Of a DNA stretch of 11,272 nt, positions 1-835 are shown piece by piece. The stretch lies in the IMG/VR virus record IMGVR_UViG_2690316311_000002. The stretch is one strand, 5' to 3'. The notes under the pieces are model-generated. The model had not been told where the DNA came from. It worked only from the letters and a program-made list of their open reading frames with translations, and made no database searches. Position 1 is the first letter of the stretch, and each line of letters starts with the position of its first letter. The position numbers and the translations under genes were made by a program. The DNA comes from a virus. Its lineage: Duplodnaviria; Heunggongvirae; Uroviricota; Caudoviricetes.

Positions 1-73
1 CATCCTGACTTTCCAGAACCATACGAATCGCCCGCTGACGGACTTCGGGGGAAAAACGAGTATTTTTAGTCAT
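1..73 (-). CDS. IS3-family transposase OrfA, N-terminal 24 codons (partial, runs off the window)
   Basis: Minus-strand ATG at 73..71 translates to MTKNTRFSPEVRQRAIRMVLESQD, which matches my recollection of the N-terminus of IS629/IS3411-type OrfA (HTH DNA-binding subunit). Not in the ORF track because it is open-ended. Confidence 0.75.
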   Translation of the reverse strand, partial: MTKNTRFSPEVRQRAIRMVLESQD

Positions 74-127
74 CCTGTTTACCTCTTTCTCAGGGAGTTT
101 AGTCTCCAGGATTTCCGGGGCGGTTCA
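1..127 (-). mobile_element. Terminal part of an IS3-family insertion sequence (left inverted-repeat end at 127; element continues beyond the window's 5' edge)
   Basis: Minus-strand reading of 74..127 gives 5'-TGAACCGCCCCGGAAATCCTGGAGACTAAACTCCCTGAGAAAGAGGTAAACAGG-3' followed by ATG: a TG-initiated terminal repeat of the type I recall for IS3-family elements (IS629/IS3411-like), with GAGG a few nt before the OrfA start. The scaffold reading frame begins exactly at 128. Family assignment is from memory, not a search. Confidence 0.75.
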
Positions 128-835
128 TTGCGTATTGGTGATGAAGAAATTCAGCTTAACGCTGACGATAATGATCACATTGACGGGCAACCTGCACCGC
201 AATGGGTGAAAGATCTTCGCAAAGGCTTCAAAGAAACACAGAAAGAAAACCGTGAGTTGCGACGCCAGCTTGAGGAAGCATTAGCCAAGCATGCGGAACA
301 TCAGCAACCACAACCAGACGCTATTCCACCAAAACCGACTCTTGAGTCGTGTGATTATGACGAACAGGCGTTTGAACAGGCATTGACTGATTGGCATGAG
401 AAAAAAGGCCGTGTCGAACAGCAGCAGCAACAAAAACTACGTCAGCAACAGGAATACCAGCAGCGTTTCCAGCAAAGGGTAGAAGCGCATAAACAACGGG
501 CAGCCAAACTTCCTGTGAAAGATTATCAGGAAATGGAAGCCATTGTTCTTAGTGAGCTACCACCAATTCAGCAGGAAATCATCATTCACTGTGCAGACGA
601 AGGCTCTGAACTACTCGCCTATGGCTTAGGTAAGAGCCAGCAATTACGCCAGCGTGTAGCCGCTGAGACAGATCCAATTCGCGCAGCATTCCTCTTGGGG
701 CAGATTAGCAAACAGGTAAGCCTTGCTCCAAAACCAAAGAAAGCCATCAAGCCAGAGCCGGAAGTACGTGGTGGCGGTGCTGATGCGAAACAAGACGAAT
801 TCAACAAATTATGCCCCGGCGCAAAAATCGAATAA
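128..835 (+). pseudogene. Phage scaffolding protein (P22 gp8-like), 5'-truncated by the IS insertion
   Basis: Sits immediately upstream of the coat gene. C-terminal half contains VKDYQEMEAIVLSELPP, resembling the P22 scaffold segment I recall as PDYQEKEDAFMQLVPP, and a Q/E/R/K-rich helical character. The frame is open back to position 2 through the IS end, so the TTG at 128 in the ORF track is an artefact, not a real start. P22 scaffold is about 303 aa; roughly 40-65 N-terminal residues appear to be missing here. Confidence 0.75.

Follow-up and report, generated by a model that had tools for sequence, protein, structure and literature searches.

Elements of the IS3 family carry two overlapping genes, orfA for an HTH protein and orfB for a DDE/rve protein, which are joined via a −1 programmed frameshift, and by the ISfinder rule an element is an isoform of a named one when the two share at least 90% DNA identity. 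IS629 produces target-site duplications (TSDs) of 3–4 bp, has no target consensus and occupies strain-specific sites, and 62% of its copies reside in prophages (PMC3271280). The IS-excision enhancer (IEE), which is often present in Escherichia coli O26:H11 strains, can remove IS629-type elements (PMC9943667). The literature also assigns to O26:H11 an IS629 sub-type of its own, and the inactivation and diversification of EHEC prophages driven by IS629 are already well documented. The head-scaffolding protein of phage P22 has been dissected by deletion. Procapsids assemble from a scaffold without residues 1–57 (Δ1–57) and retain about 140 scaffold molecules, gp16 is excluded and DNA packaging is incomplete, and the scaffold fragment 141–303 supports procapsid-like assembly both in vivo and in vitro (bioRxiv 10.1101/2022.12.13.520362).

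The locus described here adds one case to the IS629-driven changes of EHEC prophages. The window, by which we mean the whole stretch of 11,272 nucleotides that was analysed, is the entire draft contig JXVR01000083.1 (GCA_000948745.1), on which an IS end adjoins the 3' part of the head-scaffolding gene of an Sf6/P22-like prophage (Table 1). A partial product covering positions 2–835 is recorded for one NCBI contig, and a search for literature on JXVR01 or GCA_000948745 found none. The reading that we favour, with a probability of about 0.8, is a simple and recent insertion of an IS629/IS1203-type element with a 3-bp TTG duplication, which has split the scaffold gene and probably crippled the prophage. 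Such an insertion resembles the IS629/IS1203 polymorphisms of EHEC prophages in the identity of the element and in its habit of inserting into prophages, and it differs from the known sites in that, among 5,426 complete E. coli genomes, not one has the site at scaffold nt 177/178. The event is a routine strain-level IS polymorphism involving a known element, a known gene and no new mechanism.

The scaffold sequence in the window is identical, with no mismatch in 708 nt, to nt 178–885 of its counterpart in O26:H11 strain 11368, a scaffold gene that is intact and 885 nt long. Comparison with intact Sf6-type scaffold genes confirmed the predicted loss of the N-terminal part and showed that exactly 59 codons (1–59) are missing, together with the native ATG and the ribosome site. 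The lost segment is an acidic stretch, probably disordered. In its DNA sequence the remainder is about 99% identical to gene 4 of Sf6 and gene 8 of HK620, which likewise lie between portal and coat (99.1% for Sf6 genes 4 and 5). It matches PF09306 Phage-scaffold with 39.3 bits (cut-off 25) and, over profile positions 47–274 of 286, the head scaffolding protein family phrog_648 (8e-98, 328.5 bits). The coat gene follows it directly, and the portal gene precedes the scaffold gene by 14 nt in intact relatives; with the upstream order taken from these relatives, the gene has the position between portal and coat that is characteristic of a P22-like scaffold gene. In the window it is a gene fragment and not a complete ORF. 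The claim that this frame has no start codon of its own is correct as to the native ATG and its ribosome site, which are gone, and too strong as to the first remaining codon, TTG, which is the only start-type codon heading the remaining frame and a possible weak start. Ahead of this TTG the frame is open for 45 codons back into the IS, with no ATG, GTG or TTG in that interval, and no Shine–Dalgarno-like AGGAG precedes the TTG in the sequence.

The IS3-family element predicted to end at position 127 is confirmed: window 1–127 agrees at 127/127 nt with the left end of full-length, 1310-bp elements from closed E. coli genomes. Identical left ends sit in strain 2009C_3996 (L003 7665–7791) and twice in strain 98224 (L004 792–918 and 7927–8053). 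RefSeq labels the complete 1310-bp copies 'IS3 family transposase, programmed frameshift', and the left end is present in about 3,670 of the 5,426 complete genomes. The element terminates with ...CCGGGGCGGTTCA (...GGTTCA, which is TGAACC... on the element's own strand), and its left terminal inverted repeat (IRL) matches the inverted right end of a full-length copy with the same end at 22 of 25 and at 30 of 40 nt, giving the 5'-TG...CA-3' termini and imperfect terminal inverted repeats of the IS3 family. OrfA is read on the minus strand, as had been noticed, and the reverse-complement translation of its 24 visible codons is M-TKNTRFSPEVRQRAIRMVLESQD. In complete copies with the identical end, OrfA is 108 aa long and contains PF01527 HTH_Tnp_1 (47.3 bits), OrfB contains PF00665 rve (92.4 bits), the fused OrfAB scores 361.6 bits against NF033516 transpos_IS3 (cut-off 160), and an A6 run is located at nt 373. 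These copies are 96.0–97.9% identical over 1310 bp to RefSeq copies named IS1203, and with the same RefSeq-named copies as the yardstick, identity over the 127 visible nt is at or above the 90% that defines an isoform. The element, known here from its left 127 nt only, appears by sequence comparison to be an IS3-family member of the IS629/IS1203 type. No outward-reading promoter-like site was found in window 1–127. The element lies within the scaffold gene and is inverted relative to the late operon, in accordance with the original prediction, and the match at the breakpoint, exact on either side, is far beyond chance.

Table 1. Positions of the IS end, the interrupted scaffold gene and the downstream virion genes in the window.
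Feature	Position	Strand	Details
IS629/IS1203-type IS3-family left end	1..127	−	127 of ~1310 bp; contig starts inside element
IRL (left terminal inverted repeat)	103..127	−	TGAACCGCCCCGGAAATCCTGGAGA as read on minus strand
IS orfA, first 24 codons	73..2	−	ATG 73–71; MTKNTRFSPEVRQRAIRMVLESQD; cut by contig end
Head-scaffolding gene, 3' part, Sf6/P22-like prophage	128..835	+	codons 60–294 + stop
TTG, Leu60 of scaffold	128..130	+	right-hand copy of inferred 3-bp target-site duplication
Coat (major capsid) gene, intact, 423 aa	847..2118	+	PF11651 P22_CoatProtein; 100% identical to reference prophage
't coat' stem-loop terminator in late operon	2123..2140	+	7-pair stem, then T run
Intact virion genes	2161..9488	+	gene calls, Pfam; no mismatch to intact O26:H11 prophages

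That the window begins within the IS is due to its being a whole draft contig that breaks at a repeat, and the upstream side of the scaffold gene therefore lies on another contig. The 127 nt of IS at its start are probably an assembler k-mer overlap into the repeat, and a start exactly 127 nt into a multi-copy repeat seems typical of the end of a de Bruijn graph contig. The same circumstance would fit an assembly artefact in which an IS end and a normal scaffold gene were fused into a chimera at the contig edge. Such an artefact is highly improbable, since the break coincides with the exact IS terminus, the junction recurs unchanged, preceded by 29 nt of IS and with no mismatch over 10,737 nt, in a Logan assembly made independently from another run, SRR8756780 (2 samples), and the stub protein expected from the reciprocal junction is on record. 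The partial products of the Logan assembly were also looked up: the one that starts at window position 101 is on record and the one that starts at position 98 is not.

To characterize the other side of the insertion, the expected reciprocal junction was built from the intact scaffold gene and a full IS copy. In a simple insertion, the far IS end would abut ...GATTACGCCTTG of the scaffold gene, and the reciprocal side would read ...GAAGATTACGCCTTG followed by TGAACCGCCCCGGGTTTCC (IS right end), with portal and terminase upstream; in the TTG-duplication model, TGAACCGCCCCGGGTTTCCTGGAGAG would stand directly after ...GAAGATTACGCCTTG. A 3-bp TTG duplication predicts a 60-aa N-terminal product, ...EDYAL, for which the IS end supplies the TGA stop codon, and in a 4-bp duplication model the N-terminal product continues into the IS. 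An exact-sequence look-up found the predicted 60-aa stub on record as WP_044869019.1, on three contigs of which the longest is 10,474 bp, and found none of the products predicted for a 4-bp TSD. Circumstantially, we infer that WP_044869019.1 comes from the same genome as the window.

The stub also bears on another origin of the junction, in which the IS would mark the edge of an IS-mediated deletion or inversion, the 5' part of the scaffold gene together with the portal, terminase and lysis genes and the early region would have been lost or moved, and the window would be a prophage remnant. The window excludes the upstream side of this IS copy, some other copies are without matching TSDs (e.g. 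L009), IS629 has been tied to genomic deletions in the literature, and in the same prophage of strain 12690 a deletion of this type is real, with an IS629-type copy joining dsdX to the 3' end of portal. Nevertheless, such a rearrangement is unlikely here, because the 60-aa stub, which is producible only by an IS3-type end placed after scaffold nt 180, is recorded on contigs of up to 10.5 kb, and the products of other junction geometries are not on record. A simple insertion is thus favoured by the 60-aa product on record, by the junction in an independent assembly and by the absence of the junction from the 5,426 complete genomes. In a simple insertion, a 1.3-kb IS629/IS1203-type element would have transposed into codon 59/60 of the scaffold gene in the argW prophage of an O26:H11-lineage E. 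coli, in the orientation opposite to the late operon and with duplication of the 3-bp target TTG. The scaffold gene would thereby be divided into a 60-aa N-terminal stub, ended by the TGA of the IS end, and a promoterless 235-codon remainder without a ribosome site, and the insertion would be reversible in principle through IS excision.

A junction-spanning megablast search of the 5,426 complete E. coli genomes gave no contiguous match; the only match covering at least 80%, in strain 12690, was rejected as the same junction because it represents a different event. The exact 32-nt junction pattern had no match in IMG/VR viral contigs or in GTDB species-representative genomes. The remaining 11,145 bp of the window show 0–1 mismatches relative to intact prophages in dozens of O26:H11-type genomes. 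Since these 11,145 bp are undiverged from the intact O26:H11 argW prophages, the insertion is recent, indeed very recent, and confined to a few isolates. The recent inactivation that had been suggested is therefore borne out by intact prophages without a mismatch over the other 11,145 bp, and since recency explains why the downstream genes look intact, the retained function that had been offered as an alternative for the downstream cluster is not needed.

The element of strain 11368, which serves as the reference prophage, is a complete-looking 40-kb Sf6/P22-like prophage adjoining tRNA-Arg and intS, and its gene set comprises tailspike, Arc, ejection, head, terminase, lysis, Q, replication and immunity genes. 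The portal–scaffold–coat module is present in 246 of the 5,426 genomes, with a median of one copy per genome. For annotation and typing, these results assign the contig to the Sf6-like prophage that is conserved at argW in O26:H11-type E. coli. In this strain's copy of the prophage, the scaffold gene has been knocked out by a recent, private IS629-type insertion, which explains the break in the draft assembly, and the junction could mark the lineage of the few isolates in which it occurs.

The full-length scaffold protein can no longer be produced. For a Δ1–59 product, translation would have to start at TTG 128, where no Shine–Dalgarno sequence is recognisable, and the product would lack the N-terminal region that in P22 serves scaffold exit, ejection-protein incorporation and DNA packaging. 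The P22 Δ1–57 scaffold is like the remainder in keeping the C-terminal part and losing the N-terminal part, and it is unlike the window, where the start codon and the ribosome site are lost as well. By Pfam numbering, which had to be extrapolated, residue 60 corresponds approximately to P22 residue 42, so that the truncation is shorter than Δ1–57 and its effect alone is uncertain, whereas the loss of the scaffold translation signals is certain. The N-termini of the Sf6-type scaffold and P22 gp8 are not alignable by BLASTP, which served only as a rough check on the Pfam-based numbering. With a median of one module copy per genome, help in trans is therefore unlikely. Because the native start is lost, P22 Δ1–57 fails and the head module is normally single-copy, the prophage is probably unable to form infectious particles by itself, which supports the view that it is probably defective.

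If the insertion were instead tolerated, a Δ1–59 scaffold would be made from TTG 128 on antiterminated transcripts passing through the IS, and procapsids or viable virions would form. The TTG is present and its frame is open, a gene for a Q-type antiterminator is found in the reference prophage, nothing in the phage-sense direction of the IS is a convincing terminator, the deleted segment is acidic and probably disordered, and P22 scaffold 141–303 is able to assemble procapsid-like particles. Yet tolerance seems doubtful at best, as the TTG has no AGGAG in front of it and, in P22 Δ1–57 procapsids, scaffold release, gp16 incorporation and the completion of packaging all fail. Phage HF4s, with its split scaffold gene, is the one apparent precedent in nature, and there the split most likely reflects a sequencing error. 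The HF4s scaffold (MT833387.1, L012 225–1108) is deposited as 'scaffold protein 1' and '2', and this viable phage with a scaffold in two ORFs was considered as evidence of a dispensable N-terminus and rejected because of that likely error. The split results from one A missing from an A6 run at scaffold nt 141–146 in an IonProton assembly of 45x coverage, and it is probably a homopolymer error in the record.

The inversely oriented IS had also been expected to be polar on late transcription into the coat and tail genes. For lambda Q and P22 gp23, antiterminated polymerase also resists Rho. The Q-type antiterminator of the reference prophage matches PF03589 with 192 bits, and antiterminated polymerase would have to pass the t-coat terminator within the late operon in any case; the homologous terminator is annotated 't coat' in Sf6. 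In the phage-sense direction, the IS contains only two weak 5-bp hairpins, which is about the number expected by chance. The polarity argument is therefore weak, given the Q-type antiterminator, the read-through of t coat and the absence of an excess of hairpins in the IS over chance. The coat gene has its own AAGGA ribosome site at 835–839.

A further scenario combines such read-through with the reversibility of the insertion. The IS would act as an off-switch reversible by IEE, coat and tail genes would be expressed by read-through and procapsids with a TTG-initiated Δ1–59 scaffold might be made in the meantime, and excision could restore a functional phage because the flanks of the insertion are clean and undiverged. 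We regard this scenario as very unlikely; if it were true, selection for prophages that are tamed for a time would lie behind the recurrent IS3-family insertions in the head module.

Other IS-disrupted alleles of this head module are independent events at other nucleotides, sometimes involving other IS types, and none has the junction of the window. In strain 2009C_3996 (NZ_CP074890.1, L003 6482–7791), the scaffold gene carries an IS629-type copy in the same orientation, at scaffold nt 657, 480 nt downstream of the window site, with a clean 3-bp TSD, CTG. This genome is closed and of O26 type, and its scaffold gene was knocked out independently. In strain 12690 (NZ_CP074977.1, L010 2815–4124), an IS629-type copy connects chromosomal dsdX, which is truncated, with the final ~160 nt of portal; an IS-mediated deletion has removed the entire left part of the prophage, and the scaffold-to-tail genes remain.

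In the Logan assemblies SRR21728122 (L005 1–60) and ERR14097264 (L006 1–60), IS600-type ends (...GAGTGTCCGTTAAACTCAGGCTACCTCA) lie 15 and 9 nt upstream of the window site. Because IS600 is just upstream of the site, the gene caller gives the identical 235-aa TTG-start scaffold fragment in both assemblies. The fragment in L006 belongs to a mosaic prophage with different ejection-protein genes. Clustering of the IS600 and IS629 sites within 18 nt was considered as a hot spot and rejected, as a 235-aa TTG-start query finds only insertions within an interval of ~45 nt. BLAST alignments extending 16–20 nt beyond the IS end were likewise rejected as evidence of target similarity; at about 14 of 20 nt they look like a chance resemblance. 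A partial resemblance of flanks is seen between window 128–147 and L008 1628–1647, and the IS1203 copies concerned lie in a tape-measure gene or by an IS256 fragment.

The portal and coat genes are also affected in other strains. In strain 98224 (NZ_CP173472.1, L004 101–5810), an IS3-family element interrupts the portal gene, and a group II intron (ltrA reverse transcriptase/maturase) interrupts that element in turn, which makes a triple nesting. A second IS1203, between scaffold and coat (L004 6744–8053), removes the normal start region of coat in the same strain, which also carries an HNH endonuclease gene after gp10. E2865 has an IS in coat, and strain 600 has IS2 in portal.

The virion genes downstream of coat comprise those for a 61-aa ORF product, gp4-like, gp10-like, tail needle, gp14-like and the gp7-, gp20- and gp16-like ejection proteins. 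An intact prophage of the Lederbergvirus type has uninterrupted essential genes; in the window the scaffold gene is interrupted and the other genes are intact. Between the gp16-like ejection gene and the gene of an Arc/Mnt-like repressor, a 161-aa ORF (9503–9988, minus strand) matches phrog_6067 (unknown function) end to end. Since its N-terminus, MKKSLLIIPFLLVGC, has a lipobox, this ORF probably encodes a prophage lipoprotein, a moron or exclusion candidate. The Arc/Mnt-family repressor gene (10059–10358, minus strand; PF03869, PF11423) faces the start of the tailspike gene (10447–11272, plus strand; PF09008 head-binding domain), an arrangement like that of P22 immI. The far end of the window lies inside the tailspike gene, and several O26 genomes contain a second partial match to this region, a possible reason why the contig ends there. 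Between tailspike and intS, the reference prophage carries an acyltransferase gene that is a candidate for modifying the O-antigen.
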